DNA of 64,000 nt from Clostridia bacterium (GCA_017504305.1 JAFVRJ010000027.1:4172-68171); one strand, 5' to 3'; positions 20,457 through 61,111 are shown, counted from the first letter of the stretch. Numbers and translations are program-made. The notes: generated by a model not told the origin, from the letters alone.

Positions 20457-22265
20457 ATGGCTATTAACAGAGCACGTAAAAAGGATGACGAAGAACCTTT
20501 TAAAATAGATTTTAAAAAAATCTCTTTTAAGGAGTTCTTTTCTTGTGTTAAGGGCTATGGCGTTCCTACGGTACTTGCACCTATCTTTATTATAATGGAA
20601 GTAATCTTCGAGGTGCTTATACCGATGGTAATGCAAAAGCTCATTGACCAAGGTATAGGTAACGGCACTACGCCCCCCAATATGACAATTGTATGGACTC
20701 AAGGCGCAATAATGTTGGTGCTTGCTTTCGGTGCGCTTATTACGGGCGCTTTATCTGCAAGGTTTGCCGCGGTTGCTTCGCAGGGTTTTGGTAAAAACCT
20801 ACGCAAAAAGTTGTTTGATGCCGTACAAAGCTTTAGCTTCCGCAACGTAGATAAGTTTTCACACGGCTCGTTAATTACCCGCTTGACAACGGACGTTACT
20901 TTTATACAAAACACCTTTATGATGCTCATCCGCATTGCTTTCCGTTCGCCGATAATGTTTTTATTCAGCTTAACGATGGCGGTCAGCATCAATTGGAAAC
21001 TGAGCCTTGTATTCTTGGCAATTGCACCCATAATGGTTTTAGGTATTGCGATAGTAGGATCGATAGTGTTCCCGCTATTTGGCAAAATGTTCAAAAAGTT
21101 TGATAACATGAATAGCCGTTTGCAAGAGAATTTGCGCGCAATCCGAGTTGTAAAATCTTTTGTTAGAGAAAACCATGAGACGGAGTCTTTCCGCAAGACG
21201 GCGGCGGATATTCAACGCGCGCAAGTTAGAGCGGAACGCGTTATGGTATACGGTCAACCGATGGTTCAGCTTTGTATGTACGTATGTATGGTATGCGTAA
21301 TCTGGTTCGGTGGATCGATGGTGCTCAACGGCACTGGCATGACGCTTGGCGAACTTAATACCTTTATATCTTATAATAACCAAATCCTAATGTCTCTTTT
21401 GATGGTGGCAATAACCTTTGTTAACATCTTTATGAGCATGCAATCTGCAGCGCGTACCTCCGAAGTTTTATCGGAGTACCCCGATATCAACGACGATCAT
21501 GCCGATGCGGAGCTACAAGTTGAAGATAGTTCTATTACCTTTGAAAACGTTAACTTTGGCTACAATGGGGGAGAAGATAAGTACGTACTAAAGAACGTAA
21601 ATCTTCAAATCAACGCCGGCGAAACGATTGGTATTATAGGTGGCACGGGCTCGTCAAAAACCACTTTAGTACAGCTTATTCCGCGCCTATACGACGTATC
21701 GACCGGTAGCGTAAAGGTTGGCGGTCGAGATATACGCGATTATAAAATACGCACGCTACGCGATAGCGTTGCAATGGTACTACAAAAGAACGTATTGTTT
21801 AGCGGTACCATCAAAGAAAACTTGAAATGGGGTAACGATAACGCTACCGATGAAGAGATCGAAAGTGCTTGTAAGGTAGCGCAAGCTCACGATTTTGTAA
21901 TGAGCTTCCCAGATGGCTACGCTACCGATTTAGGTCAAGGAGGCGTAAACGTATCAGGTGGACAAAAACAACGTTTGTGTATCGCAAGAGCGCTTATTAA
22001 GAAGCCCAAAATCATGATTTTGGATGATTCGACCAGTGCGGTAGATACTGCAACGGATGCTCGCATACGCCGTGCTTTCCGCGAAGAACTTAAGGGCACT
22101 ACGGTAATTATTATCGCGCAACGCATATCCTCAATAAGCGACTGCGATAAGATAATAGTTATGGATAAAGGTGTGATAACCGATATAGGTACTCACGCCG
22201 AGCTTTATGAAAAGAGCAAAATCTATCGCGAAGTATGCATTTCGCAACAAAAGGGGGTGGAGTAA
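20457..22265 (+). CDS. ABC exporter, fused permease/ATPase (heterodimer partner 1)
   Basis: Six-TM domain followed by Walker A GGTGSSKTT, signature VSGGQKQR and Walker B ILDDSTSAVD. Confidence 0.9.
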   Translation: MAINRARKKDDEEPFKIDFKKISFKEFFSCVKGYGVPTVLAPIFIIMEVIFEVLIPMVMQKLIDQGIGNGTTPPNMTIVWTQGAIMLVLAFGALITGALSARFAAVASQGFGKNLRKKLFDAVQSFSFRNVDKFSHGSLITRLTTDVTFIQNTFMMLIRIAFRSPIMFLFSLTMAVSINWKLSLVFLAIAPIMVLGIAIVGSIVFPLFGKMFKKFDNMNSRLQENLRAIRVVKSFVRENHETESFRKTAADIQRAQVRAERVMVYGQPMVQLCMYVCMVCVIWFGGSMVLNGTGMTLGELNTFISYNNQILMSLLMVAITFVNIFMSMQSAARTSEVLSEYPDINDDHADAELQVEDSSITFENVNFGYNGGEDKYVLKNVNLQINAGETIGIIGGTGSSKTTLVQLIPRLYDVSTGSVKVGGRDIRDYKIRTLRDSVAMVLQKNVLFSGTIKENLKWGNDNATDEEIESACKVAQAHDFVMSFPDGYATDLGQGGVNVSGGQKQRLCIARALIKKPKIMILDDSTSAVDTATDARIRRAFREELKGTTVIIIAQRISSISDCDKIIVMDKGVITDIGTHAELYEKSKIYREVCISQQKGVE

Positions 22266-22266
22266 T

Positions 22267-24162
22267 ATGCCGGGACCGAGATCAGGAAAAATGGAAAAAC
22301 CGAAGAACCCCTTAAAGACCTTTAAGAAGATATTTAATTATATCGGAGCATACAAGTGGCAGTTGCTTATAGTAATATTTGCTACCATCGGATCGGTTGC
22401 AGCAAACCTCATAGGCACCTATATGCTCCAAAACGCACTTACAATCATCGAAACCTACGATGCTCTTACCGCTACCATAGAGGAAACGCTTGCAAGGCTT
22501 GCTTCTCAAGTAGGCATTATCATATGCGTATATTTGTCAGGCATATGTTGCACGGTATTGAGTAGTAGGTTGGTCCTAAACATCCAAACGGGCACTCTAC
22601 GTAAGTTCCGTGAGGACATGTTCGAGAAGATGGAGCGCCTACCTATTAGGTACTTTGATACTCGCACTAACGGTGAGATCATGGCAAGATACACCACTGA
22701 TACCGATGCCATCCGCGAAATGATTTCTAACGGTATCCCGTCGATTATCAACTCCTCGCTTACCATTATCGGCGCGTTTACCTTGATGCTTATTTTTAGC
22801 CCGCTTCTAACGCTTTTCGTTATCGGCATGTTAATTTTGATGCTTGTAGCAGTAACGATAGTAGGTGGCAAGGGTTCCAAGTACTTCATTAGACAACAAG
22901 CATCCATAGCAAACGTTAACGGATATATTGAAGAGTATATTAGCGGTCAAAAGGTAGTACAAGTTTTCTGTCGTGAAGATCAGGTCAAAGAGGGCTTTGC
23001 AAAACTCAACGACGAGCATTGCAAAACGGCAACCAGTGCTCAAACCTTTGCTCATATTCTCATGCCCATCATGGGTAACTTAAGCTATATCAACTACGTT
23101 GTAACCGCAGTAGTTGGTGCCGTATTGGTTGTCAACGGCAAGATGGACGGCGTAGCAACGCTAATTCCCTTCCTAACCTTATCCCGTCAGTTCTCGATGC
23201 CCTTGACTCAAATTTCACAACAATTCAACGGCATCCTCTCCGCTCTTGCGGGCGCCGAACGTATCTTTGCGCTTATGGAAGAGCCTCCGGAAGTAGATAA
23301 CGGTTACGTAACACTTGTTAACGCTATAATCGATGAGAACGGCAACGTCACCGAAAGCGCCGAGCGTACCGGCAAATGGGCGTGGAAGCACTATCATAAA
23401 GCCGACGATACCACCACATACGTGGAGCTTAAGGGCGCGGTAGAATTTGAAAACGTAGTCTTTGGCTACGAAGAGAATAAGACGGTTTTAAACGGCGTAT
23501 CACTTTATGCAAGACCGGGACAAAAAATTGCACTCGTTGGTTCGACCGGTGCCGGCAAAACCACCATCACCAACCTTATAAACCGCTTCTATGACGTACC
23601 GGATGGCAAAATCCGTTACGACGGAATAAACATCAATAAAATCAAAAAAGACGACCTTCGCAGATCTTTGGCGATGGTACTGCAAGATACCCATTTATTT
23701 ACCGGAACAGTACGCGAAAACATACGTTACGGTAACCTAAACGCAACTGACGAGCAAATTGAAAGGGCTGCAAAACTTGCAAACGCACACGACTTTATAA
23801 CCCTTATGCCCGATGGTTACGACACCATCATTAATGCAGACGGATCCAACCTTTCGCAAGGGCAACGGCAATTGCTATCAATTGCACGTGCAGCGGTCGC
23901 AGATCCTCCGGTACTTATACTTGACGAAGCTACAAGCTCCATCGACACCCGTACCGAAGCCCTCATCGAGCAGGGTATGGATAAGCTCATGGAAGGTCGT
24001 ACCGTATTTGTAATTGCTCACCGCCTTTCCATCGTTCGAAACGCGCACGCCATCCTCGTTATGGAAAACGGCCAAATTATCGAGCGTGGCAACCACGATC
24101 AACTCATCGCTCAACGCGGTAAGTATTATCAGCTCTATAACGGGATGTTCGAACTATCTTAG
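22267..24162 (+). CDS. ABC exporter, fused permease/ATPase (heterodimer partner 2)
   Basis: Walker A GSTGAGKTT, signature LSQGQRQL and Walker B ILDEATSSID. ATG 22267 follows a GGGGGTGGAG RBS directly after the partner's stop. Confidence 0.9.
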   Translation: MPGPRSGKMEKPKNPLKTFKKIFNYIGAYKWQLLIVIFATIGSVAANLIGTYMLQNALTIIETYDALTATIEETLARLASQVGIIICVYLSGICCTVLSSRLVLNIQTGTLRKFREDMFEKMERLPIRYFDTRTNGEIMARYTTDTDAIREMISNGIPSIINSSLTIIGAFTLMLIFSPLLTLFVIGMLILMLVAVTIVGGKGSKYFIRQQASIANVNGYIEEYISGQKVVQVFCREDQVKEGFAKLNDEHCKTATSAQTFAHILMPIMGNLSYINYVVTAVVGAVLVVNGKMDGVATLIPFLTLSRQFSMPLTQISQQFNGILSALAGAERIFALMEEPPEVDNGYVTLVNAIIDENGNVTESAERTGKWAWKHYHKADDTTTYVELKGAVEFENVVFGYEENKTVLNGVSLYARPGQKIALVGSTGAGKTTITNLINRFYDVPDGKIRYDGININKIKKDDLRRSLAMVLQDTHLFTGTVRENIRYGNLNATDEQIERAAKLANAHDFITLMPDGYDTIINADGSNLSQGQRQLLSIARAAVADPPVLILDEATSSIDTRTEALIEQGMDKLMEGRTVFVIAHRLSIVRNAHAILVMENGQIIERGNHDQLIAQRGKYYQLYNGMFELS

Positions 24163-24637
24163 ACCGCGTATAAGCTTCGCAATACTTCACAAATAAACAA
24201 AAACCCACTCGGTTATGTACGTTCAAGTACACTCCCGTCGTGGGTTTTTGTATTTGTTCGTCTTGCTCGCTTCTTCGCGGTCTAACCCCATACATAAGCT
24301 TCTCAATACAGCATAAAATAAAAACCCCACTTGGTCATGTACGCTCAAGTACGCTCCCGTCGTGGGGTTTTGTATTTGTTCGTCTTGCTTGCTTCTCCGC
24401 GGTCTACATCCTACTTAATACGCTTCGCAGTACCATATTAATAAACCAAACCCCACTTGGTCATGTACGTTCAAGTACGCTCCCGTCGTGGGTTTTTGTA
24501 TTTGTTCGTCTTGCTTGCTTCTCCGCAGTCTAACCCCATACATAAGCTTCTCAATACAGCATAAGCGTACGCATCAGTACGCTCCCATTTTGTGCTTTTT
24601 ATTTATATTTGTCTTGCTTGCACTTGACTGTCTACCT
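24160..24637 (+). repeat. Tandem hairpin-repeat array, locus 1 (3 full units plus a degenerate one, period about 118-128 bp)
   Basis: Hairpins at 24199-24249, 24321-24371 and 24448-24497 use AAAACCCCAC/GTGGGGTTTT-type stems with a loop core GTAC-N6-GTAC. Each is followed by a T-rich tail and the linker TTCGTCTTGCTYGCTTCTNCGCGGTCTA. The same family recurs at 59660-60336. Confidence 0.9.
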
Positions 24638-24707
24638 TTTATTGGGCTTTAGTAAAACCCAATAGGCTTAATTTTTACCCTTATAATCTATATTTTAAAG
24701 TTCACCG

Positions 24708-24727
24708 CTACGCGGTTGACCGCGTAG
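24708..24727. promoter_or_regulatory. Perfect 20-bp palindrome upstream of the lipoprotein promoter
   Basis: CTACGCGGT-TG-ACCGCGTAG. The half-site equals the CTACGCGGT(CTA) unit-end motif of the repeat family. Confidence 0.6.
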
Positions 24728-24748
24728 AAATATATTTCTCTTTTTATA

Positions 24749-36555: not shown

Positions 36556-39500
36556 TTAGAACTTCAGATGATGCGGTCTCTTCTTGCGCTTTCTCGGTGA
36601 GAAGAAGGAGGGGAAGAAGGTAAAGAATATAATCAGCACGATGGCGATTATTAAGCCGATCTTGATGTATCCGCCCTTGAATTCGCCTACAAAGCCAATA
36701 CCTTCGAGGTCACCTGCGTTTTCGAGGGTGATTATGCCGTTTACCACTGCAAGATCTTTTACGCGGTATTTGCCCTTTTCCTTAACGACTACTTTTACGC
36801 TTTCCTTATCGGCATAAGCGGAGGGAACTTTGATTTGCATTACGCTATCGTCGCTTAATACGTCGTCGCCGTTAATATCGATTTCATAACCGATAACAAC
36901 GCGCTCGAGGGCGGTAAGGAGTCCGCTAATGGTGCTATTGGATTGCATCTTTTCGAGCTTGATGGTGGAGTCGGGGTGGAATCCGTTGTCAGACTCGATC
37001 ATGACGGAAAGATCTTCGCTTTGATGCTCGATGGTGAGTGAATAAATGGTTATGGTAACCATAACGGGGTCTGGCTCGGAATAGGTATCGGTAGCGTCTG
37101 CACGCAAGGTTACGATATATAGTCCGGGGCTTACGAAGGAGTTTTCGACCTCGTTTGAACCGAGATAGTATTTTATTTCTGCGCCACTTGAGCAAGTTGC
37201 TTCGATCACGTAAGCATTGCCGTTGTATACGAAGGATACGTCCGTATTGTCGACGCGGATTTTTGAGGGGTTACCGTAAATGCGGTAGGTAGCGGTGGTA
37301 ACCACCAAAGTATAGCACTCGTTGGTGCAAGTTGCATCGAGAGTATAGAAGCCTGCGATAGTACCTTCTTCTTTTGTGATTACGATGCCAACGTCCTCGT
37401 TATTGACTATGCTACCAGCGGTAATTGTGTAAGCGCTTTGGTCAACGATTATGGCTTCGCCGATAGTGGAGTATTGATCTTTAAGCGTTATGAAAATCTT
37501 ACGTTGAACGATAGTATAGGTACCGGGTGTGAACTCGATTGTGTAGTTATCGTTGTGGAGCGTTCCGATTAAGATGTCGTATCCACCGGGAACGGAGCCC
37601 GCTTCGCGTTCGAGAGAGCCTTCCAATTGCTCTTGACCAATTAGTGGAGTGGTGTCGTCAACAATGGGAGTAAGGGTGGCTTCGGGATCGCCGTATGCTA
37701 CGCTAACGTCTTGGGCGGTAACCTTAATGAAGTACGGTGAAATCGTGTAATTAAACGTGCCGTCTGCAAGCTTTACGTCATAGTTAGGATTGAGCTCGTT
37801 AAGGGTTCCGATGCTAATCGCATACTCACCTACGTTCGTGCCGTCAGCGCGTGCTAACTTACCGTCTAATTCACTTTCCGTAAAGGCGAGTGCGGTATTG
37901 GTATAGGTGATATCTGCATCTACAGAGCCGTATACGTGACCGACTCCGCTATCGGGGGTGACGATAACTTCTTTAGGAAGGATAGTGCAGTAAGCATCAT
38001 CGAGTTTTACAGAGTAGTTATCGTTATTCGAGCTTGCGAGGGAGATGGGATAGTCATTAACGTCTTCGCCAATTTCTCTTTGTAAAACGACTTCGAGCTC
38101 TACGTTGGGGATGCCGGTAGCAAGACTATATCCATACTTAATAGAGTAAGTAATAGTGCCGTCCTCATCGCCGTAGTTCTTTGTGAATCCAACGGGAACA
38201 ATGTAGATTTCGCGAGCAGTAACGGTATATTTTGCGCTAACGAAAGTAATGTTGTAGTTGGGGTTAAGCTCATTGGTAACGGTACCTTGTAATATGTTGT
38301 ATTCACCTGCGTCCGTACCTTCTTCGCGAGCGAGGTAACCGTTAAGTGATTCGTTACCAACCAAACCCACTACGTCAAAGCCCAATTCGTTTTGTTCTTC
38401 ACCAAAGATTTGGCTATCAGCTTTTGCGGTAACGGTGATATCTTTAGGAAGAATCTCGTATTTATCAACACCTGCACCATCCGCAATAGTGAACTCGTAG
38501 TTCGAGTTGAAAGCATATACGGTCAGTAAATCGTACAAGCCTTTTATCGTACCGGATTCGCGAGTGTAGTAAACGGTTACAACGTCATCGTGGAAGCCCG
38601 TTTCGATATCTTCAACAAGAAGTATTTCGTTTTCACCATAGGTGTTAACAAACTTTTTGGGAGTTACGGCATAAGGTCTAACGTTAATTGTGAATTTGCC
38701 GATTCCGCTATCCGTGGTCATGCTTGCGGTATAGTTTGCGCTATCGGTAATAACGTCTACAAAGTCGATAACAGTGCCGGCGTTTTCATTGGAAACGGCG
38801 TCTCTTAAGAAGATTACGTTGAGGGTTTCGCCGTTTAGTCCGTTTACCTCTTGCTTAAACTCGGGATCGTGGTCGCCGTAAAGTTTGCTATAAGCGTTGG
38901 GCGTTACGTCGCCGATATAATAGGGAGTAATCTTCAACTTAACGAGTATGGATGCTTCGTTATAGTTGGTCGTTTGGGCGGCGGTAAGGATGACGTCGTA
39001 GTATTCGCCGTCCGCTTTAACGTCTTTATAGCTTGCGTTTGCTTCAGCGGTCGTTTCGTTGTGGTTGAGGAGCGCCGTAGCGGTTTGGGAATTTGCATTG
39101 TAGATTAGCTCTAAATAGTGTGTGCCGTCAATAACGTTTGTGTTAACGGGCGTTATAACCGTATTAGCGCGGTTTATGACGTATTTTACACCCGTGGTGA
39201 AGGAAATATCGTAATTGAGGTTATTGGCGCTTGTGAGCGTTCCTGCAGTGATTTCGTAAGAGCCTGCAGTGCCGTCTTGATTACACTCGAGCGCACCGGA
39301 TAGGGGATATCCGCTAACGATAGCGTTACCCGTGGTGCCGGCACCGCCACTTACTTTGTAGTTAAGAGCTTGTTCGGCATCACCATAGGTGATAATCACT
39401 GCAACGGGAGTTATAGTTATGGGACGCTCGGTGATTACGTAATTAGCGCCAACGTAAGTGATATCGTAGTTAGCATTAGCTAACGTACCTTGGCTAATGG

Positions 39501-42500
39501 CGTAAGTGCCGACTATTTCGCCTACACCCCTTACGAGAGAGCCGGATAAAGTATCGTTGTTAACAATGCCTGCCGTGGTATATGAAAGCTCTTTTTCCGT
39601 TTCACCGAATACTTGAGTTTTACTATCGGCAGTAATCGTTAAGGGACGGGCTTCAAGAGTATACTTTCCGTTAACAAGAGTGATAGCATAGTTGCTGTTT
39701 TCAGCGTTGATTACGATATCGTAAGAGCCAACGCTCGAGTATTTTGTAACGGTAGAAGTAAAGGTTACGTTAAAGTCGTCGCCTGTTTTTTCGTTGCCAT
39801 CGGTGGAATAACCGAAATCCAATAAATCATCGCCGTATACGCTTGATTTATTTTTGGCGGTAATTGTTAAGGGACGAGGGGTAATATGATAGTAGTTGGT
39901 GTTAACTTTAACGGTATATTCGCCTGCATCGTAGTTTGCGGTAATTGAATAATCACCAACAACGTCACCGCTGTCACGAGAGAGTTGAACGTTAAGAGAA
40001 TCGATATTATCGCCATCTGCAAATACGCCTTGGTGAGTAAAGGTGAGTGCAACTGCTTCGTTGCCGTAAACTTGAGTTTTTTCCTCAATGCTTATAACTA
40101 TTATGCTTTCACCAATCGTATAAGTGCCTTCTACAAAAATAACTTCATAGTTCTCATTGGCACAAGTACCGGTGATATCATAGTCGCCTTTGGGCGAAGT
40201 TGAAGTCGCGGTGGTGGTTAAGGTTATTTCAAGGTCATCTTGGTTATAGATTTCACCTGCGGTAACGCGACCCGTTAACGTTTCGAGGCTAATACCATAG
40301 TTAGAAGCTTTATTATCAATGGTATAAGTAATGGGGGCAGGGGTGATGACGTAGCTACCTTTATTAAACGTAACATCGTAGTTTAGGTTACTATAGGTTG
40401 CGTTTGCGTTGGTCAAAATATAATCACCCGCATTTACGGGCATATTAACGTACGCGATATTAAGAACGCTTATAGGTTCGTCGTATGCCATTGCGTATCC
40501 ATCGGCAAGAGTAGGAGCGGGAGGTACAATAGCCAAGCCGTATTGACTTTCGCTGGAATTTAGATTTACGGTAATGGCTTTCTGGTTTACGGTGTAAGAG
40601 CCGTTTAAGAAGGTTACGTTGTAGTTAGCGTTATTAAAGCTTGCATCCGTTGCCTCAAGGACGTAAGTGCCTTGGTCTTTATTTGCATTTTGAGGTACGG
40701 TGATATTAAGTAGGTTAATATCTTCGCCATAGGCCATGCTAAAGCCGTCCGCAAGATCATAACCAATGGTTTGGAAAGGATCACCGTATGTTGAGCTACC
40801 ACTTCCAATTTGGATTGTAATCGCTTTAGCGCTAATCGTGTAAGTGCCGTTTTTTATGGTTACGTCGTAATTTGCGCTATTGCTGGTGCCGGTGATGTCG
40901 TAAGTACCAAAGCCCAAGCCGTCCTGCTTCGTAAGCGTTACGTCAAGGTCGGATTCATCATCGCCTGTAACTAAAGCTCCGTCAGTTATGGTTATAGTTA
41001 GGGGAGCAAACGCTTCGCCGTAAACAGAAGTCTTATCAGCAGCTTTTACGGTAATAGGCTTTTTAGTAATTGTATAAGTGCCCTTTGCCGTTGAGGCGTT
41101 GGTAACGTTGTAGTTCGTGCCGTCGCCGTTGTATGTTTTGACGGTAATATCATAAGTGTCAACGCCATAAGTGTCAACGCCTAAACCATCTGACGTTTGT
41201 AGCTCGATAGTGCCGAGGTCTGCAATAGTATTGCCGTTTACAAGATTGTTTGCAGTAAACGTTAGGGGTACAATGCTTTCGCCGTAAACGGAGGTCTTAT
41301 CAGCAATAGTAATCGTAACATCTCTCTTGGTGATAGTATAAGCACCGGTCGTTTTGGTGCCGTCTTCACTTGTAAAGCTTACGTCGTAATTAGTGCTTGT
41401 ACTTGTGCCGTTGATGTTGTACGTGCCAACGTTAGCCGTATTGGAAGCAATAGTAGTAAGACTAATTGCAAGAGCGCTTACTTCGTCTTTAACACCATCT
41501 ATGGTTGCGAGATCGTCGGGGTCATAAGTAAAGGTAAGTGACTCGATAACGTTGCCGTAAACAGAAGTCTTATCATCAACCGTTACGGTAATATGCTTTT
41601 GAGAAATGGTATAAATACCGGTATTGCTTGCGGTTACTACGTAGTTATTTGCCTTTAAGGACTTAGCAGTAATTCCGTAAGTGTCAACAGTATAGCCGGC
41701 GTCCCTTGCTAAAACAGCGGTTATTACGTCGATTGTATCGCCGTTAACAAGCTCGGTGGAGGATATGGTGAGTTGTGCATCATCTTGACCATAAACGTGG
41801 CCTGCATTGTTGATGGTGACGCTTATTGGGCGTTGATTGATTTTGTAAATGCCATTTGCTACGGTTATATCGTAGTTAGCACTCGTTGCGGAACCGGTTA
41901 TGTCGTAATCGGCAACGTTAGAAGTGTTAGTGGCAGTGGTGGTAAGTGTTACTTTGAGAACGGCTTCAGTATCGGTGTCACCATTTACAAGTGCGCCATT
42001 AGGGATCGTATAGGTCAGGGAAACTATATCATCGCCGTAGTCGGAAGATTTATTAACCGCATATATGGTAATCGCCTTTTTTGCGATGGTGTATGTGCCG
42101 GTCGTTTTGGTGCCGTCTTTACTTGTAAAGCTTACGGCGTAATTAGTGCTTGTACTTGAGCCGTTGATGTTGTACGTGCCAACGTTAGCCGTATTGGAAG
42201 CAATAGTAGTAAGACTAATTGCAAGAACGCTTACTTCGTCTTTGACACCATCTATGGTTGCAAGATCGTCGGGGTCATAAGTAAAGGTAAGTGGCTCGAT
42301 AACGTTGCCGTAAACAGAAGTCTTATCATCAACCGTTACGGTAACGGCTTTCTTCTCGATAACAAAATTGGTAGCTTGTAAGATTACGTTGTAGTTGGGG
42401 TTGGCAATAGTACCGAGGTTAAATGCATAATTTGCTACGGCTTCACCACTTGCTCTTTGGAAAGCTCCACTCAAAGCATCGCCATCGTATAAAGTACCAC

Positions 42501-44295
42501 TTGTTACGTTGTACGCACTAAAAACGGGGTCAACGTCGCCGTAGGTCTTTTGGACGTTGGTCGGCTCGACGGTCAAACTTGCTTGATTTACCGTAAAGGT
42601 TATACGTTCGCTATTTAAGGTGACGTAGAAGGGGTTTCCGGTTGTAAACAGGTTGTAATTTACGTTGACCGTGTTGCAGTACATCAAAGCCAAATTATAT
42701 TCGTCAAGAGTGGTTACAAGTTCTGCGGTATAGGTGCCGGCTTGTAGTCTTGCGTTTGAGTAATCATCGTTCCAACTTTCGTAAACAATATTGCCGTTTG
42801 CATTACGTATACGTACGGAAGCATTTTCGAAGCTGTTTGCGCGGTTTGTAGATGTAGATCCCGCCCAATAACCTACGCCACAGGTTGCTAAATTAGAATT
42901 AAGGCTTAAATCGGTATTTACGGAATTATTAGTATTATCGCGGATAGAAGCGACAATATCTTCAAGGTCGATATCGGAACTATAAGTATAAGTTGTGTTC
43001 GCAACGTGGATGGTAGCAATTTTACCAATTCTAACGTTAGCGAAAACGTTGGAAGTCGGTTCTGATTCTGATTTGTTGATTTTAAATAGAACGTCTACGC
43101 CGGCGCCAATATCCGATTTAGTACCGATAAATACAATACCGTCAGCACTACCGCCGGTTGCAAAAAGTTGGGTGTTTCCGTTATAACCGACGTGGCCGAT
43201 AACGTAATCGTCATTGCCGATGCTTGCCGAGAAACGTCCCTTTAAAACCAATATATCTTCGTTATTGGGATCAAAGCAAACTCTATCGACGTAAGCGTTA
43301 GCATTTGTAAACGTTACGCCATTATAGTTATTTGCCACCATAGTGCGGTAGACTTCTACCGTATTGGTAACGGTCGCACCGGTTGTAGTGGTGGTTCCGC
43401 TAAGCCCTTGGTTTTGAACGGAAGCATCGTTGTTATGCGACGTTCTGTTATCAAAATAATATAATTTATCAACGTTACAACTATTCCCGGCAGAAACAAT
43501 ATTTTTTGTTGTAGTTACGGAATATGGACCTGCTTCAAAAGTGCCCGTGAACCCCCAAACAAGGTCTTTACAATCAACGGTAGAGCCTAAATTATCGCCG
43601 ATGAAGCCACCTACTCGCACGGAAGTGGTGTCGGTCGTCTCGCTAAGACTTGAAGACGCTTTACCGCTTCCAAAAATAGAGCAACGCTCAAATAAAGTGT
43701 GCGTGGAACTAAATGAAGCAACACCAACAAACAAACCGAGGTTAGCATTGCCGCCGTAGTTCATGTTGCGTTGTAAACCATGTCCTACGCTGGAATTGTA
43801 TGCATCCATGATAAGAGTACAATCCGTTATTGAAGAAGTACCGGTAACCCTTCCAACAACACCACCCATGCCATCATGAGTTTTAGTGATTGCGTGGTAT
43901 CTTATACAAGAGCCGGCTTCATAAGTGATAGTACAATTATATAATGAAGCACCGCCTTCCATAAGACCGACGACTCCCCCAAAGCTACATGGGGACGTGT
44001 TGTTATAGTTACTATCTCCCCAATAATTTGTGTTTGAAGCAAACGCAACGTTGAGGTTTTTGATTGTACCGCCACTTAATACGTCGACGATCATTCCGGT
44101 GTTAAGTCGGTCGCCGGTTGTCATGCGCGTCCAGCTGGTGTCAATGGGATTAAGCTTTATGGTATGACCATTTCCATCTAAAACACCGCTAAACGTTACT
44201 TGACCATGAGTTCCAACAACGGGATACCAACCGTTTGATGCCGTAATATCGTTTGCAAGATAGTATTCACAGATACGGAATGAGCAGAACTTGAA
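36556..44295 (-). CDS. Giant surface protein, C-terminal frame (GLUG motifs, more than 20 MBG/YGX-type repeats, C-terminal TM anchor)
   Basis: The frame is open from 44295. The 57 codons upstream of the ORF-track ATG read EYYLANDITASNGWYPVVGTHGQVTFSGVLDGNGHTIKL, which is typical of GLUG-region modules. Repeats follow the pattern ...YG(D/E)...L(T/S)(Y/F)T...G(D/N)...G(T/E)Y.I...NY.V. The tail is IGLIIAIVLIIFFTFF...RKRKKR. Confidence 0.8.
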   Translation of the reverse strand, partial: FKFCSFRICEYYLANDITASNGWYPVVGTHGQVTFSGVLDGNGHTIKLNPIDTSWTRMTTGDRLNTGMIVDVLSGGTIKNLNVAFASNTNYWGDSNYNNTSPCSFGGVVGLMEGGASLYNCTITYEAGSCIRYHAITKTHDGMGGVVGRVTGTSSITDCTLIMDAYNSSVGHGLQRNMNYGGNANLGLFVGVASFSSTHTLFERCSIFGSGKASSSLSETTDTTSVRVGGFIGDNLGSTVDCKDLVWGFTGTFEAGPYSVTTTKNIVSAGNSCNVDKLYYFDNRTSHNNDASVQNQGLSGTTTTTGATVTNTVEVYRTMVANNYNGVTFTNANAYVDRVCFDPNNEDILVLKGRFSASIGNDDYVIGHVGYNGNTQLFATGGSADGIVFIGTKSDIGAGVDVLFKINKSESEPTSNVFANVRIGKIATIHVANTTYTYSSDIDLEDIVASIRDNTNNSVNTDLSLNSNLATCGVGYWAGSTSTNRANSFENASVRIRNANGNIVYESWNDDYSNARLQAGTYTAELVTTLDEYNLALMYCNTVNVNYNLFTTGNPFYVTLNSERITFTVNQASLTVEPTNVQKTYGDVDPVFSAYNVTSGTLYDGDALSGAFQRASGEAVANYAFNLGTIANPNYNVILQATNFVIEKKAVTVTVDDKTSVYGNVIEPLTFTYDPDDLATIDGVKDEVSVLAISLTTIASNTANVGTYNINGSSTSTNYAVSFTSKDGTKTTGTYTIAKKAITIYAVNKSSDYGDDIVSLTYTIPNGALVNGDTDTEAVLKVTLTTTATNTSNVADYDITGSATSANYDITVANGIYKINQRPISVTINNAGHVYGQDDAQLTISSTELVNGDTIDVITAVLARDAGYTVDTYGITAKSLKANNYVVTASNTGIYTISQKHITVTVDDKTSVYGNVIESLTFTYDPDDLATIDGVKDEVSALAISLTTIASNTANVGTYNINGTSTSTNYDVSFTSEDGTKTTGAYTITKRDVTITIADKTSVYGESIVPLTFTANNLVNGNTIADLGTIELQTSDGLGVDTYGVDTYDITVKTYNGDGTNYNVTNASTAKGTYTITKKPITVKAADKTSVYGEAFAPLTITITDGALVTGDDESDLDVTLTKQDGLGFGTYDITGTSNSANYDVTIKNGTYTISAKAITIQIGSGSSTYGDPFQTIGYDLADGFSMAYGEDINLLNITVPQNANKDQGTYVLEATDASFNNANYNVTFLNGSYTVNQKAITVNLNSSESQYGLAIVPPAPTLADGYAMAYDEPISVLNIAYVNMPVNAGDYILTNANATYSNLNYDVTFNKGSYVITPAPITYTIDNKASNYGISLETLTGRVTAGEIYNQDDLEITLTTTATSTSPKGDYDITGTCANENYEVIFVEGTYTIGESIIVISIEEKTQVYGNEAVALTFTHQGVFADGDNIDSLNVQLSRDSGDVVGDYSITANYDAGEYTVKVNTNYYHITPRPLTITAKNKSSVYGDDLLDFGYSTDGNEKTGDDFNVTFTSTVTKYSSVGSYDIVINAENSNYAITLVNGKYTLEARPLTITADSKTQVFGETEKELSYTTAGIVNNDTLSGSLVRGVGEIVGTYAISQGTLANANYDITYVGANYVITERPITITPVAVIITYGDAEQALNYKVSGGAGTTGNAIVSGYPLSGALECNQDGTAGSYEITAGTLTSANNLNYDISFTTGVKYVINRANTVITPVNTNVIDGTHYLELIYNANSQTATALLNHNETTAEANASYKDVKADGEYYDVILTAAQTTNYNEASILVKLKITPYYIGDVTPNAYSKLYGDHDPEFKQEVNGLNGETLNVIFLRDAVSNENAGTVIDFVDVITDSANYTASMTTDSGIGKFTINVRPYAVTPKKFVNTYGENEILLVEDIETGFHDDVVTVYYTRESGTIKGLYDLLTVYAFNSNYEFTIADGAGVDKYEILPKDITVTAKADSQIFGEEQNELGFDVVGLVGNESLNGYLAREEGTDAGEYNILQGTVTNELNPNYNITFVSAKYTVTAREIYIVPVGFTKNYGDEDGTITYSIKYGYSLATGIPNVELEVVLQREIGEDVNDYPISLASSNNDNYSVKLDDAYCTILPKEVIVTPDSGVGHVYGSVDADITYTNTALAFTESELDGKLARADGTNVGEYAISIGTLNELNPNYDVKLADGTFNYTISPYFIKVTAQDVSVAYGDPEATLTPIVDDTTPLIGQEQLEGSLEREAGSVPGGYDILIGTLHNDNYTIEFTPGTYTIVQRKIFITLKDQYSTIGEAIIVDQSAYTITAGSIVNNEDVGIVITKEEGTIAGFYTLDATCTNECYTLVVTTATYRIYGNPSKIRVDNTDVSFVYNGNAYVIEATCSSGAEIKYYLGSNEVENSFVSPGLYIVTLRADATDTYSEPDPVMVTITIYSLTIEHQSEDLSVMIESDNGFHPDSTIKLEKMQSNSTISGLLTALERVVIGYEIDINGDDVLSDDSVMQIKVPSAYADKESVKVVVKEKGKYRVKDLAVVNGIITLENAGDLEGIGFVGEFKGGYIKIGLIIAIVLIIFFTFFPSFFSPRKRKKRPHHLKF

Positions 44296-56955: not shown

Positions 56956-59673
56956 ATGAAGGTAAGGACTCTTATTTGCGTATTGGCTATTGCGGTAGTT
57001 GCTTCAGTGGCCGTAGCCGCAGCTTTTGCCACCGATCCCGACGTAGGTATGCGTTTGATAGTACCTAAAGATTGGGAGCTGGAAATCGGTGATTCTCGTA
57101 CGGTTGATTACGTTTTTGATGATGAGACGGTTACAAACCGCAAATTGACGTGGACTACTTCTAACGAAGAGGTGGCTACGGTTGACAAGTGGGGGCGTGT
57201 AACCGCTGTCGGTAAGGGCAAGGCATACGTTTATGCCGAAACCTCCGATGGTCTCAAAGCTAAAGCAAGGTTAAATGCAGTTGAGGTATCGACGGTTAAC
57301 CAAGTTGCCACTACTAAAATCGACTATAAAGGCAACGCAGTAACACTTGGTGCCAATCTTCAAAAGGTGGTAACGCGTTACGAAAGTGCTATAGTCAGTG
57401 AATCTACTGCGATTCCCACGGCTGTCAAAGAAGCGTTTGTAAGCGGTGTTTACACCGACATGAACGTGGCAACGACGGCAGATGGAGCCGTTTGGGAGAT
57501 AGTTTCTTACGGCGTACTTCGCACCGACGATAACGCACTTGATGCTCGCGATAAAGTTCAACGCTTTATGGGCGATAGATATTTCTTCTCAAAAGATACC
57601 ACAACCGGTAACGTTCTCGGTATATATGCCGACGGAGAAAACGGTATATGGACTATAATGGCAGGTGGCGTCACTCACATCGAGATGCTTAAAATCAACG
57701 GCACCGATAAGGCCGCGATGATGGTGAAAAGCACCCAAGACTACGTAATGAGACACGGCTACGTGGCGGAAAGTTACTATAACGGCTCTAACGATACTTG
57801 GAAGCCGGTTGAGTCTGATAACGATGGTTTATGGACTTCGATGTACGCAGCCGGTGAACTTATGAGATACGCATCTTTGAAGAAGTCCGGTACGGCTACT
57901 CCCGCTGAAATTGCTGCCGCCAGAGAATCTGCAATGGTTTCTACCGAAGCAGTACTTCTTTTATCCAATATAGTTATGCGTAAAGGAACGGTTGAAGCTT
58001 ACGTTCGTTACCAACCCAACGGACGTTACGACGAGTTCCCGTATGGTAGCAATACCGCAAACGGCAGATATCACTCGGCAGATGCGCTCGAAAAGGGTGG
58101 CGACAACTCTCTTAACGTTCCTGCGGTAAGCCCTGCGGAAGCCTTTGAAATCGCTTACAATGCTTATCTTGAAGACGGCACCATGACCTATTTCCTCGTT
58201 GACGGATACCTTGAGCCCTTTATTCAAGAGGATTGGTCCAACCCCATCGTTAACGAAGACGGCTCCGTAACCTACGAAACTCGCACTCGTAATTTGGAAG
58301 GATATATTGCTCGTACCTATTCCGTAGCCTCCGAAAACAATATTCCCGACGGATATATTCATTACCAATTTGAACGTGACGAAGAGGGCAACTTGATTGC
58401 ACGCGGTGTATCCACGATGAAGGAACACGAAGGCGGTTATTATCTTAACGGTGAAAACTTGAGAGGTGTTGAAGTCGATGCTTCCGGCGAAATCCCCCAA
58501 AGATTGTGGGACGATTTGGTAGATGCAGGCGCTATTGCAAGCGACACCGATATTACCGACATCTTCTATAAAGGCGACACCAGTTCGGATGAAATAATAG
58601 GGCATTTATTCCTCTACAAAATAGCATACGATATTTTAGGACAAGAGGATGCCGAAATCAAAAAGATAATTGCAAACACAATGGACCGTTTTGCTCAACA
58701 TATTACCGATAACGGATATATGATGGTAGATGCCACCGGTCAACCCGGAACGTGGTCCAAATTCAACAGAGAGTTCTTCTACAATAGCTCTCAACTTGGT
58801 GGCGCGCCCTTGACGGCATCGGTAGCACTTTGTGCCTTCAAAGTAGCATATTACGTAACCGGCAACGTTAAGTGGCAAAACGAGTATATGATGGCGGCCC
58901 TTGACCCTGCATATGAATATGCAAAGCTCATGACCAAGTATTCCGAGCAATGCTATATGTACATGATGCTACTCTTAAACGAGTACCTTGAGGAATATAC
59001 GGGAGGCTTACTCAATCTCGAAGCAATCGTCGATGGGTTGGGACTTGACGTAAGTCCTGATTCCGATCTTACCGAGATGCTCAAGAGACTGTTTATCAAC
59101 TACTCTGATGAAGAGATGGCAATGCTTGCATACTACCTCTTATTCCAATTGGAAACTGACGAAACCTTACTTAATTACTATCGTGAGGGCCTTAACGATT
59201 GGTGGGAGTCGATATCCTATTCCGAAAACCCCTTATGGTATTATATCTATCAACTTGCTTACCCCAACGAAACCATCCTTGATAGATACGGTAATAACAT
59301 TTTGGAAACCGCTGCATGGCAATTATCTCGCCATCCCATAGATACCCGTCAATACAACGCATCCAATGGTAATCGTGACGATATAGACATCCTCGATTTG
59401 TCCTCACTCGGCGGAACGCAATTGAGCTTTAGAGCACAAGAGGGTATTGAAATCGATTTAAGCGGTGTAGCAGGTATCTTTAGCGCCCTTCAAGATGGGC
59501 CTTCGCTCGAGTGGACCGTTGCTCCTGCCGATGAGAGAGCGCTCCATAAATATAACGGTCCGACTTACCGTCTTGAAACCGATTACAATCCCAACTGCAT
59601 GGAAGGCTCTACTACCTACACTTTGCCTTATTGGTTAGGTGTGTATCACAATATGTTGGTAGACCGCGGATAA
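56956..59673 (+). CDS. Secreted Big_2 (Ig-like) domain protein with a large uncharacterised, possibly alpha/alpha-toroid, region
   Basis: Signal peptide present. Big_2-like segment LTWTTSNEEVATVDKWGRVTAVGKGKAYVYA. The rest is helical-repeat-like (DNDGLWTSMYAAGELMRY). The last three codons and the stop lie inside the repeat family's 5' block. Confidence 0.5.
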   Translation: MKVRTLICVLAIAVVASVAVAAAFATDPDVGMRLIVPKDWELEIGDSRTVDYVFDDETVTNRKLTWTTSNEEVATVDKWGRVTAVGKGKAYVYAETSDGLKAKARLNAVEVSTVNQVATTKIDYKGNAVTLGANLQKVVTRYESAIVSESTAIPTAVKEAFVSGVYTDMNVATTADGAVWEIVSYGVLRTDDNALDARDKVQRFMGDRYFFSKDTTTGNVLGIYADGENGIWTIMAGGVTHIEMLKINGTDKAAMMVKSTQDYVMRHGYVAESYYNGSNDTWKPVESDNDGLWTSMYAAGELMRYASLKKSGTATPAEIAAARESAMVSTEAVLLLSNIVMRKGTVEAYVRYQPNGRYDEFPYGSNTANGRYHSADALEKGGDNSLNVPAVSPAEAFEIAYNAYLEDGTMTYFLVDGYLEPFIQEDWSNPIVNEDGSVTYETRTRNLEGYIARTYSVASENNIPDGYIHYQFERDEEGNLIARGVSTMKEHEGGYYLNGENLRGVEVDASGEIPQRLWDDLVDAGAIASDTDITDIFYKGDTSSDEIIGHLFLYKIAYDILGQEDAEIKKIIANTMDRFAQHITDNGYMMVDATGQPGTWSKFNREFFYNSSQLGGAPLTASVALCAFKVAYYVTGNVKWQNEYMMAALDPAYEYAKLMTKYSEQCYMYMMLLLNEYLEEYTGGLLNLEAIVDGLGLDVSPDSDLTEMLKRLFINYSDEEMAMLAYYLLFQLETDETLLNYYREGLNDWWESISYSENPLWYYIYQLAYPNETILDRYGNNILETAAWQLSRHPIDTRQYNASNGNRDDIDILDLSSLGGTQLSFRAQEGIEIDLSGVAGIFSALQDGPSLEWTVAPADERALHKYNGPTYRLETDYNPNCMEGSTTYTLPYWLGVYHNMLVDRG

Positions 59674-60336
59674 GCTTCGCAATACTTCATAAATAAACAA
59701 AACCCCACTCGGTCATGTACGTTCAAGTACACTCCCGTCGTGGGGTTTTGTATTTATTCGTCTTGCTCGCTTCTACGCGGTCTAATCCCACGCATAAGCT
59801 TCACAATACTTCATCAAACAGGCGCACCCCCTCAATCACGTACGACCAAGTACGCTCATATCGGGGAGTGCGCCGTTTTCTTCGTCTTGCTCGCTTCTAC
59901 GCGGTCTACATCCTACACAAGGGCTTTACACTATACTCGGTCATGTACGTTCAAGTACGCTCATATCGGGGAGTGTGCCGTTTTCTTTGTCTTGCTTGCT
60001 TCTACGCGGTCTAATCCCACGCATAGGCTTCACAATACTTCATCAAACAGGCGTACCCCCTCAATCACGTACGACCAAGTACGCTCATATCGGGGAGTGC
60101 GCCGTTTTCTTTGTCTTGCTTGCTTCTCCGCGGTCTAACCCCATGTATAGGCTTTACAATATACTCGGTCACGTACGTTCAAGTACGCTCCCATTGGGGG
60201 CTTTTTATTTTTGTTTGTCTTGCTCGGTTCTCTGCTGTCTAAACGCACGCATAGGCTTCACAATACTTCATAAATAAACAAAGCCTCCCTACAGTTGCGT
60301 ACAATTTGTACACTCCAATTGGGGAGGCTTTTTTAT
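59660..60336 (+). repeat. Tandem hairpin-repeat array, locus 2 (about 6 units, three stem classes)
   Basis: Hairpins at 59699-59749, 59821-59874, 59921-59979, 60050-60103, about 60187-60200 (degenerate) and 60281-60330. The loop core GTAC-N6-GTAC and the linker ...GTCTTGCTYGCTTCTNCGCGGTCTA are shared with locus 1. Confidence 0.9.
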
Positions 60337-60353
60337 TATCAAAATAATGCTCG

Positions 60354-61106: not shown

Positions 61107-61111
61107 AATTT

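Follow-up and report, generated by a model that had tools for sequence, protein, structure and literature searches.

ERIC, the enterobacterial repetitive intergenic consensus, has been known since 1990-91, and ERIC-PCR typing is used worldwide. The element was reportedly described by Sharples and Lloyd in 1990 and by Hulton et al. in 1991, under the names ERIC, IRU and RU-1, and an orientation rule for ERIC at stop codons is said to come from De Gregorio et al. in 2005. According to reviews, ERIC is a 127-bp MITE with TA termini, whose RNA hairpin alters mRNA stability in an orientation-dependent and ribosome-influenced manner. Further interspersed repeats of 100-170 bp also form stable hairpins, i.e., SPRITE, RUP (S. 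pneumoniae), EFAR (Enterococcus), bcr1 (B. cereus) and Correia/NEMIS; these adjoin ORF ends and are co-transcribed, some being terminator-like or RNase-processed, and their terminal repeats match IS families (RUP with IS630).

The window analysed here, i.e., the whole 64-kb stretch of DNA, holds two arrays that are probably clusters of a small non-coding foldback repeat, MITE-like and of ERIC type, which would be an array-forming new member of that kind acting as a 3'-UTR hairpin.

Two arrays built of one unit

The array at 24160-24633 (array 1) consists of three full units and one truncated unit, as given in the preliminary description, and that at 59660-60337 (array 2) of six units of the same family. 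Both lie directly 3' of + strand genes, and the two hairpins first singled out there are reproduced in coordinates and sequence: AAAAACCCAC (24199-24208) pairs with GTGGGTTTTT (24240-24249) in array 1, and AAAACCCCAC (59699-59708) with GTGGGGTTTT (59740-59749) in array 2. The compensatory stem swap claimed between them is exact (A and C at 24203 and 59703, T and G at the paired 24245 and 59745), and the array starts, said to be more than 90% identical, are 91% identical (24160-24318 versus 59660-59818; family D1).

The loop motif GTACGYTCAAGTACRCTC, with at most 3 mismatches, occurs nine times and the block TTCGTCTTGCTYGCTTCT eight times (0.12 expected for each), all matches being on the + strand and confined to the two arrays. 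TRF reports a period of 126 with 3.2 copies at 24170-24564 in array 1, and of 229 with 2.5 copies at 59707-60271 in array 2. The covariance-model search that had been proposed with the first observation was run with model R1 over the whole 64-kb window with filters off, and recovered ten units, all in the arrays, with nothing above noise in the rest of the 64 kb. The features are as follows, with R1 scores in bits.

24160..24284, + strand: U1, complete element (133 bits; fold -55.3 kcal/mol, z = -11.3)
24160-24168 with 24276-24284, + strand: basal stem P1 of U1, TAGACCGCG with CGCGGTCTA, 9 bp
Within U1, + strand: P2a, AAGC/GCTT, and P2b, GCAATAC/GTCTTGC with a T.C mismatch
24199-24208 with 24240-24249, + strand: P3 of U1, with the apex at 24209-24239
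24294..24406, + strand: U2 (98 bits, model positions 14-117; fold -30.3 kcal/mol, z = -3.6); P2-P4 intact with stem AAAACCCCAC/GTGGGGTTTT, 3' basal strand CGCGGTCTA at 24398-24406, linker ACCCCATAC (24285-24293) in place of the 5' basal strand
24418..24532, + strand: U3 (107 bits; from sequence); preceded by linker CATCCTACTTA, P2-P4 present with one C.T mismatch in P3, 3' basal strand CGCAGTCTA at 24524-24532
24542..24633, + strand: U4, truncated and decayed (22 bits; from alignment); without A-rich leader, P3 5' arm and apex 5' side, 3' arm decayed to TTTTGTGC
24700..24735, + strand: putative remnant of a unit, similar to its 5' part (from sequence); its palindrome CTACGCGGT-TG-ACCGCGTAG at 24708-24727 has the same bases as the basal stem
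59660..59784, + strand: V1, complete element (136 bits; fold -56.2 kcal/mol, z = -10.9)
59660-59668 with 59776-59784, + strand: basal stem P1 of V1
59794..59908, + strand: V2 (89 bits; from fold); different covarying P3, GGCGCACCCCC / GGGG-A-GTGCGCC, without 5' basal strand
59919..60013, + strand: V3, short chimeric unit (38 bits); without leader and P3 5' arm, apex left half V1-type and right half V2-type
60023..60137, + strand: V4, near copy of V2 (115 bits; family D6)
60147..60241, + strand: V5, short chimeric unit (38 bits); remaining 3' half a compact terminator-like hairpin GCTCCC/GGGGGC, then TTTTTATTTT
60251..60337, + strand: V6, terminal unit (21 bits; fold -24.2 kcal/mol, z = -5.7); 5' P2 region and third covarying stem AAAGCCTCCC (60280-60289) / GGGAGGCTTT (60322-60331), then a T-run, without 3' P2/P1

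The order of linker types is common to both arrays, and each array begins with its only complete element. In the units that follow, the 5' basal strand or the entire 5' arm is missing, and some of them are chimeric. The ORFs running through the arrays look like artefacts, as had been supposed: those at 24240-24533, 59740-60138 and 59975-60277 match no Pfam family above threshold, and the unit periods (122, 126, 105, 124 and 104) maintain no single reading frame.

In four strains, unit words are 14-36x as deep as the flanks, with many distinct left flanks, and at the junction 24159/24160 many different left flanks join in four metagenomes. Together with the relatives found in other genomes, the raised depth shows that the units form a real repeat family, as first proposed, and not a local segmental duplication; the condition named in the preliminary description as weakening the family view does not apply.

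At related loci, a full element can lie within the apical loop of another (L039:7392-7680 and L069:2115-2380), nested patterns of the type L-L-A-R-R occur and right-half units are numerous. Chimeric units have their junction in the apex, where the breakpoints of nested insertions and of half units cluster too. The 229-bp higher-order period of array 2 arises from the 95% identity between 59753-59908 and 59982-60137. As read from these sequences, the arrays grow by tandem duplication, insertion of units into one another and recombination at the apex, and such a pile-up explains why only the first unit is whole. Both arrays stand at the same junctions in all four strains examined, so that there is no sign of ongoing excision, and the spacer before the downstream gene measures 648 bp in all three assembled contigs carrying that gene. 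Logan contigs break inside the repeats, which limits the comparison of array length between strains; contigs of strains X3 and X5 join 24434 to 24736, which hints at a shorter array in these two.

A covarying rod anchored at stop codons

A complete unit folds into a single imperfect hairpin rod of ~125 nt (-55 and -56 kcal/mol for U1 and V1, z = -11). Above the basal stem at its foot come two short helices, in which pyrimidine mismatches are conserved, then a middle stem that covaries freely and finally the apex. The A-rich leader pairs with the T-run, and the structure is closed by AAGC/GCTT, by GCAATAC/GTCTTGC and by the 9-bp TAGACCGCG/CGCGGTCTA, in which the stop codon lies. At the apex, a 3x3 loop (TCA/CTC) is followed by a 5-bp helix, YGTAC/GTACR, and this by a loop whose last bases are CAA; the apical motif—TCA, YGTAC, loop, GTACR, CTC—is near-invariant.

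Covariation extends over the whole rod. RNAalifold predicts 28 pairs from 20 copies, 19 of them with compensatory changes; over 83 copies, 90.9% of cells are paired, whereas shuffles give 67.8% and sliding the partner columns 27-51%, and double-change cells number 463 versus 135 in shuffles. Among 46 cross-phylum copies the paired fraction is 90.3% versus 62.2%, with covariation in 25 of the 28 pairs.

The position of elements relative to gene 3' ends, which had also been proposed for study, has a preferred polarity. Among 70 full elements, 26 have the stop of a co-oriented ORF (100 codons or more) no further than 8 nt from the 5' foot, and just one has its 3' foot at the end of an ORF on the opposite strand. 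The basal stem starts on the upstream gene's stop codon or just after it, and of the 32 stop-adjacent copies, 16 have this codon fully paired with its exact complement (TGA-TCA in 9, TAA-TTA in 6, TAG-CTA in 1). Stop-adjacent units follow unrelated genes, and their polarity relative to the gene is always identical. Some lineages have acquired elements at gene ends, where they persist across species; among ABC gene orthologues, the element, where present, begins exactly at the stop and leaves the C-terminus unchanged. No empty site was recovered in a close relative.

In the window, array 1 begins at the stop codon, the TAG in TAGACCGCG of U1 being that of the ABC exporter gene 22207-24162, and array 2 begins 12 nt before one: the gene of a 905-aa Big_2 protein (56956-59673) runs four codons (V-D-R-G) into V1 and stops at V1's own TAA (59671-59673). 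A putative TA target-site duplication would suit the window copies (TA-GACCGCG...CGCGGTC-TA) and the copies of the ABC orthologues (TA-A...T-TA), which are flanked by TA, but not the TGA-type copies (TTTTGACGG...CCGTCAAAA), which have no such flanks. The ABC exporter product has 631 aa on record and 651 aa as called here (the start differs); its closest relatives, 79% identical, are on contigs from gut metagenomes, and none of the named MAG loci encodes a close match to the proteins of the window.

Distribution, probable kinship with ERIC, and other known repeats

The covariance model recovers 83 copies at 51 loci of gut Clostridia/Christensenellales MAGs, where the nearest relatives of the window units are also found, and relatives in other genomes number in the hundreds. 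Full-length matches occur in Desulfobacterota, Betaproteobacteria and Brucella, and the same architecture in Desulfobacterota, Alpha- and Betaproteobacteria and E. coli. Loci in other genomes mostly hold single units, and near-identical copies can stand at separate loci within one genome. Rfam 15 gives no match at gathering score in the window and 15 related loci, and permissive Rfam searches return terminator-like noise alone; viral contigs scanned with the apex motif gave no matches, and a full-text literature search for the apex sequence retrieved unrelated primers only.

Model R2, built without enterobacterial sequences, matches three of five E. coli/Pantoea ERIC copies over their full length (27.3, 25.0 and 24.8 bits, E ~4e-5, the scores being modest and the E-values roughly calibrated) and misses two. 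Like the window element (U1 and V1, 125-127 nt, 28 pairs in the consensus rod), ERIC is an imperfect palindrome of ~125 nt forming one long stem-loop, whose apex has a stem, a 3x3 loop TCA/CTC, a 5-bp helix and a short loop, and the CTGCGT and CTTGTC blocks are common to both. On the reverse strand the ERIC core reads CACCCCAG TCA CTTAC TTAT GTAAG CTC CTGGGG: it has its flanking stem, TCA/CTC internal loop and GTCAC...GCTCC frame in common with the window, whereas the loop and the 5-bp helix differ, the helix covarying as CTTAC/GTAAG in ERIC and CGTAC/GTACG in the window. Elements of both kinds immediately follow stop codons and keep a fixed polarity (the ERIC copies examined begin right after the stops of ybhI and of a DUF1471 gene); both have TA at the two termini (among window-type elements, in the window copies), and the orthologous copies of both are very well conserved.

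In contrast with ERIC, which the literature consulted reports solely from Enterobacteriaceae and Vibrio (Vibrionaceae), the window belongs to a gut Clostridia-like host, and sequence similarity is low (25-27 bits). Also unlike ERIC, window-type elements form tandem and nested arrays, half of their stop-adjacent copies have the stop codon itself paired in the basal stem, and the middle stem is terminator-like in the window lineage. Since their nearest relatives lie outside Enterobacteriaceae and Vibrionaceae, the units are best called ERIC-like, as opposed to ERIC proper. The preliminary description had missed the stop-codon anchoring, the invariant apex and the kinship with ERIC.

An intergenic element of E. 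coli with five to six copies, between glrK and qseG, has an apex, TCACGTACGACATGTACGCTCC, almost identical to that of the window, and likewise folds into an imperfect hairpin; it differs in being shorter, in matching the model by its apex only (18-20 bits) and in being unannotated in K-12. No literature on its function was found. It may be the 'RSA' family of older surveys; identification with BoxC, a purine triplex motif, and with RU-3, a REP pair, was rejected.

The remaining families are less close. SPRITE, RUP, EFAR, bcr1 and Correia/NEMIS show no detectable sequence or apex similarity, none is in Rfam, and no IS partner is evident for the window element. REP, BIME and REPIN are extragenic palindromes too, mostly downstream of genes and clustered, REP doublets forming hairpins of ~100 nt, and a DNA-level hairpin substrate is plausible for REP and window element alike; they were rejected on size and tag (20-40 nt with GTAG or CGTC, versus ~125 nt without either), and, unlike REP, the window type has its conserved part in the apex and not in the arms and flanks no RAYT in the fetched loci. 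Integron attC sites are of similar size (~60-140 nt), conserve structure more than sequence, have conserved unpaired bases, abut the preceding stop codon with fixed polarity and fold better on the bottom strand. They were rejected as well: no RYYYAAC/GTTRRRY R-box is present at the feet (TAGACCGCG/CGCGGTCTA, TTTTGACGG/CCGTCAAAA and similar), the apex is not variable but conserved, no integrase was found in the fetched loci, the neighbours are syntenic housekeeping genes and not cassettes, and window-type units can adjoin each other with no cassette between.

Proposed role and alternative readings

If the arrays are ERIC-type 3'-UTR hairpins, the element would form the 3' end of the upstream gene's mRNA. 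A terminating ribosome, covering the stop codon and ~12 nt, would keep the basal helices open, the full rod would close only on untranslated or released RNA, and translation would thereby be coupled to the fate of the mRNA 3' end; an analogous coupling has reportedly been proposed for stop-codon-adjacent ERICs in Yersinia. Because Firmicutes have, to our knowledge, no RNase E, the proposed nuclease step cannot be identical to that of ERIC. In the window lineage, the GC middle stem between A-tract and T-run may serve as a terminator, intact and some truncated units probably being bidirectional intrinsic terminators or 3' exonuclease blocks. V6, which adjoins the end of a convergent gene (60354-61118, minus strand; ZIP domain) at a distance of 17 nt, could therefore terminate in both directions.

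More broadly, and tentatively, ERIC may be one branch of a cross-phylum, stop-codon-anchored superfamily, which as conceived would span Clostridia, Desulfobacterota and Alpha-, Beta- and Gammaproteobacteria. Its near-invariant apex (TCA, YGUAC, loop, GUACR, CUC) would be read by a conserved factor, and its basal stem would couple termination to the mRNA 3' end or mark strand-specific DNA insertion.

The strand on which the rod folds bears on a different reading, in which the active form is single-stranded DNA, probably the bottom strand, whose hairpin would be a substrate at the apex for a nuclease or recombinase (e.g., HUH or tyrosine recombinase); position and polarity at gene ends would then come from the insertion mechanism and the direction of replication, as with REP/RAYT and attC. 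Across all copies G.U and A.C are about equally frequent (76 versus 67), without the usual signature of a sense-strand RNA, and in stop-adjacent copies, where A.C is the commoner on the sense strand, the antisense fold has 74 G.U versus 40 in the sense fold. The antisense strand also folds ~9 kcal/mol better in 61 of 68 copies; the loop there reads GAG/UGA, with tandem G.A possible, and T.C becomes G.A. Wobble and strand stability are no less compatible with a role at the DNA level or of the bottom strand. The clustering of breakpoints at the apex and the attC-like abutment on stop codons and conservation of structure over sequence point the same way, and an orthologous element that is 99% identical next to a gene at 90% could reflect conversion or re-insertion. 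However, the fetched loci contain no transposase, integrase, Rep, RAYT or other partner protein; the genes between or beside elements are housekeeping and syntenic (DinB, PEPCK, SpoU, MMPL, ThiC, L1 and similar), DinB and PEPCK being flanked by inverted copies. The missing R-box consensus and REP tag, the conserved apex, the empty search of viral contigs and the identical junctions in four of four strains also speak against it, and this reading is considered unlikely.

That the units are duplicated Rho-independent terminators, with termination as the conserved function, appears quite improbable. The terminator-like hairpin of the preliminary description is indeed present, but as the inner part (P3/P4, the inner third) of the ~125-nt rod, and termination does not stand as the conserved role of the family, since the middle stem often lacks a T-run in relatives, its 3' arm being followed in many of them by TCTTCGCG or similar. 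Within the window the resemblance is considerable: both arrays lie at gene ends, the middle stems are GC-rich with an A-tract before and a T-run after (by eye, in U1-U3, V1, V2, V4 and V6), truncated units are compact hairpins followed by T-runs, and V6 is a textbook terminator, the region of which has weak Rfam matches solely to terminator-containing models. Yet a structured apical domain of 31 nt separates the arms, beyond the usual loop of ~3-8 nt, and a consensus terminator scan called only short alternative hairpins inside units and missed the main ones; moreover, the whole 125-nt rod is conserved, the basal stem and two outer helices covary, and the conservation of the apex across phyla is not expected of terminators.

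The units are tandem, structured and sRNA-sized, and the intact ones end in a terminator-like hairpin, as would suit trans-acting sRNAs or a processed RNA array like the repeats of type III antitoxins; but no promoter-like site on the + strand precedes them, no toxin or other partner gene is adjacent, Rfam gives no match, most other loci have single units and unit starts are the stop codons of unrelated genes, all of which makes this reading very improbable. A simple segmental duplication within the genome, with no wider significance, would suit the 91% identity over the first 159 bp and the shared linker order but has practically no chance in view of the depth, the many flanks and the hundreds of covarying copies across genomes and phyla.

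For the annotation of gut MAGs, such arrays are a source of spurious ORFs and of breaks in short-read assemblies. They can also give genuine genes extra terminal codons or substitute for the original ones, an example being the 905-aa protein encoded at 56956-59673. If the kinship of the window element with ERIC holds, the ERIC family extends to at least five bacterial classes with one invariant apex and a start at the stop codon; its partner protein would become approachable by phylogenetic profiling, lineages with and without RNase E could be compared, and covariation could tell which strand folds.

Two arrays of one foldback repeat

The two arrays in the window, at locus 1 (24160-24633, units U1 to U4, 3' of the ABC exporter genes) and locus 2 (59660-60337, units V1 to V6), are probably clusters of a hitherto undescribed repeat that belongs to the ERIC type of foldback element and is carried by Clostridia-like gut bacteria. 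The preliminary description, which assigned both arrays to one repeat family, was right in this, but its reading of them as consecutive terminators is too narrow: alignment of the ten units of the two arrays indicates that the conserved unit is a whole rod of ~125 nt, of which the reported hairpin, a real stem as described, is only one part. At locus 1 this stem pairs AAAAACCCAC (24199-24208) with GTGGGTTTTT (24240-24249), and at locus 2 AAAACCCCAC (59699-59708) with GTGGGGTTTT (59740-59749); the sole difference, A/C at 24203/59703 plus T/G at 24245/59745, is exactly the compensatory swap claimed, and the identity of more than 90% estimated by eye for the array starts measures 91% over the first 159 bp. 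One conserved block is matched 9 times in the window and another 8 times (0.12 expected by chance in each case), every match lying on the + strand and within the arrays, and TRF finds periods of 126 (3.2 copies) and 229 (2.5 copies). No Pfam family scores above threshold in three tested ORFs crossing the arrays.

Features of the complete units and of the rod, from foot to apex
24160-24284, + strand: complete unit U1, predicted single rod
59660-59784, + strand: complete unit V1, predicted single rod
P1, foot of the rod: TAGACCGCG/CGCGGTCTA, then a 3x3 loop
P2a: AAGC/GCTT
P2b: GCAATAC/GTCTTGC, with a conserved T.C mismatch
Between P2b and P3: A-rich leader paired with a T-run
P3: variable GC stem, then CGG/CCG toward the apex
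Invariant 3x3 loop: TCA/CTC
P4: YGTAC/GTACR, capped by a six-base loop whose last bases are CAA

The predicted fold of U1 and V1 reaches -55 to -56 kcal/mol (z = -11). Within the window P3 takes three unrelated sequences (AAAACCCCAC, GGCGCACCCCC and AAAGCCTCCC), each accompanied by its own complement. Compensatory changes affect 19 of 28 pairs among 20 copies, and among 83 copies 90.9% of cells are paired, against 67.8% when shuffled and 27-51% with slid partners, although alignment to the model itself tilts these covariation counts toward structure.

Only the opening unit of each array is complete; those that follow have no 5' P1 strand, and U4, V3 and V5 lack the entire 5' arm. V3 and V5 are chimeras with their junction within the apex, the 229-bp higher-order repeat (family D6) corresponds to V2+V3 and V4+V5, and linkers of the same two types alternate in the same order in both arrays. 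In units without a 5' arm (60187-60211, 59955-59988) the apex GCTCC is predicted to refold with the orphan 3' arm into a compact hairpin that leads into a T-run (as in GCTCCC-ATT-GGGGGC TTTTTATTTT), so that decayed units may still work as terminators. A palindrome 3' of the locus 1 array, CTACGCGGT-TG-ACCGCGTAG (24708-24727), shares its bases with the basal stem, and the surrounding region (24700-24735) looks like a unit remnant. Contigs from two metagenome strains (X3 and X5) join 24434 to 24736, which hints at a shorter locus 1 array in these strains.

Elsewhere in the window, a 2522-aa ORF on the minus strand (36556-44124), with internal repeats ~260-750 nt apart (families D3, D4, D7, D9 and D13), probably encodes a giant repetitive surface protein and is followed on the same strand by a 735-aa ORF. 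The ABC exporter ORFs (20457-22265 and 22207-24162) share 59 nt at their listed coordinates; in public gene calls the second product has 631 aa rather than 651 aa, which places the real start ~60 nt further downstream.

Family size, stop codons and rearrangement

A local duplication does not account for the arrays, and the family reading is borne out by copies in other genomes and by four metagenome strains of the same species, in which word depth of the units is 14-36 times that of the flanks and many different sequences abut the junctions 24159/24160 and 59659/59660. Scanning one genome per species for the apex motif gives at least 112 loci, and the motif has no match in viral contigs; a unit HMM followed by a first covariance model (R1) gives, among the matches listed, 83 copies at 51 loci, nearly all in Christensenellales, 'Clostridia', Ca. 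Scatosoma and Ca. Limadaptatus gut MAGs. Individual genomes hold several subfamilies, and copies lie in both orientations. For the window and 15 related loci Rfam 15 yields zero matches at gathering score, and permissive thresholds give terminator-like noise alone.

Anchoring at stop codons and polarity both show among 70 full-length elements: 26 have the end of a co-oriented ORF (100 codons or longer) no more than 8 nt from their 5' foot, and a single one has an opposite-strand ORF ending at the 3' foot. In half of the stop-adjacent copies (16/32) the 3' foot holds the exact complement of the complete stop codon and pairs with it (TGA-TCA 9, TAA-TTA 6, TAG-CTA 1); in most others the stop lies just outside the stem. 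Copies with the foot pair flipped, so that TCA or TTA is on the 5' side, lie away from gene ends, often in opposite orientation. At locus 1 the ABC exporter gene uses the TAG of P1 as its stop codon. At locus 2 the element's TAG (59660) is out of frame, and the ORF of a 905-aa Big_2-domain protein (56956-59673) ends at the TAA of GGATAAGC, its last four codons (V-D-R-G) and stop being contributed by the element (59659-59673). Of 80 ABC-gene orthologues from metagenomes (amino-acid identity 70-79%), six carry an element by model and two more by eye; in all of these it begins at the stop codon itself and its right arm compensates. The closest relatives have ordinary terminators instead and an unchanged C-terminus. 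Gain, or loss, of the element has thus taken place exactly at the stop codon and left the protein unaltered.

Rearrangements centre on the apex. In one MAG, two loci (L039:7392-7680 and L069:2115-2380) each hold a complete element within the apical loop of another (CATAC-G[TTTTGATGG...CCATCAAAA]TAAAAA-GTATG), left-left-apex-right-right patterns are common, and right-half units beginning GTAYGCTCC are numerous. In one pair of species the orthologous arrays are identical up to the second unit's apex, beyond which their right halves differ. Between two orthologous elements (L004:7729-7865 and L079:2335-2471) identity is 99%, the adjacent gene is about 90% identical, the downstream flank is unalignable, and the junction reads TGA-TGA in one species and a single TGA in the other. 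At the loci retrieved, neighbouring and intervening genes are ordinary (DinB, PEPCK, SpoU, MMPL, ThiC, ribosomal protein L1), with no transposase, integrase or Rep among them.

Relatives in other phyla and probable kinship with ERIC

The same architecture (a foot starting TGA, a TTCG block, a long rod and the apex CAC GTACGNNCAAGTACGCTC C) is present outside Clostridia in multiple copies, in several Desulfobacterota MAGs, one betaproteobacterial MAG, Brucella daejeonensis and others, with full-length R1 matches at E values of 1e-9 to 1e-4, and several of these copies adjoin stop codons of long ORFs. In an alignment of 46 copies across phyla, 90.3% of cells are paired against 62.2% when shuffled, and 25 of 28 pairs covary. 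Megaplasmids of Sphingobium, Shinella, Agrobacterium vitis, Phyllobacterium and Ensifer carry relatives of the Brucella copy; such alphaproteobacterial copies may be linked to the Bru-RS or RIME repeats of the older literature. One copy, on Allorhizobium ampelinum S4 plasmid pAtS4e (476940-477031), has an isocitrate lyase/PEP mutase family gene on one side and an ABC permease gene on the other.

The betaproteobacterial copy as query matches an intergenic element present in 5-6 copies in every E. coli genome, an unannotated hairpin found, for example, between glrK and qseG (L197:1148-1311, L198:6508-6671), whose apex, TCACGTACGACATGTACGCTCC, is near-identical to that of the window's repeats; it may be the RSA family of older surveys. 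This match led to comparison with ERIC, the ~127-bp repeat of enterobacteria, whose core, the region of the standard ERIC1R and ERIC2 primers, is found in all 5426 E. coli genomes, in most at 99% identity or more. On the reverse strand it reads CACCCCAG TCA CTTAC TTAT GTAAG CTC CTGGGG, with the same stem, the same TCA/CTC loop and a short terminal loop, while its 5-bp helix differs from that of the window family by one covarying pair. The ERIC between ybhI and ybhJ starts directly 3' of the ybhI stop codon and is matched over its full length by R1 (17 bits). A second model (R2), derived from 46 copies (Clostridial, Desulfobacterota and Alpha/Betaproteobacterial) and free of enterobacterial sequence, scores this ERIC at 27.3 bits (E = 3.8e-5) and two further copies, from Pantoea and an IncN plasmid, at 25.0 and 24.8 bits; it does not match two more divergent ERIC copies. 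ERICs at or overlapping stop codons reportedly favour one orientation and those far from ORFs the other, which is the pattern of the window family. Reviews class ERIC as a MITE of 127 bp that has TA termini, terminal inverted repeats and a target duplication, and present its RNA as a long stem-loop; the hosts in the ERIC literature examined are E. coli, Yersinia, Vibrio, Photorhabdus and Xenorhabdus only.

Possible roles of the element

The element would be co-transcribed with its upstream gene, and the terminating ribosome would hold P1 and P2a open, so that the 3' strand (U/C-rich UUCGUCUUGCUCGCUUCU) would be single-stranded only during translation of that gene; the closed rod, or in the window lineage the GC stem and U-run, would end or protect the transcript. 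A role as single-stranded DNA, with the hairpin as a substrate cut at the apex, is a serious rival, because G.U and A.C mismatches are equally common (76 vs 67), stop-adjacent copies have 74 wobble pairs in the antisense fold against 40 in the sense fold, and in 61 of 68 copies the antisense strand, with its purine-rich conserved loops, exceeds the sense strand in stability by ~9 kcal/mol. The RNA role and the DNA role are mutually compatible.

Array formation, a stop codon inside the basal stem and a terminator-like middle stem are new with respect to the ERIC type. More widely, sequence comparison suggests that ERIC-like elements sharing one invariant apex extend across several phyla.
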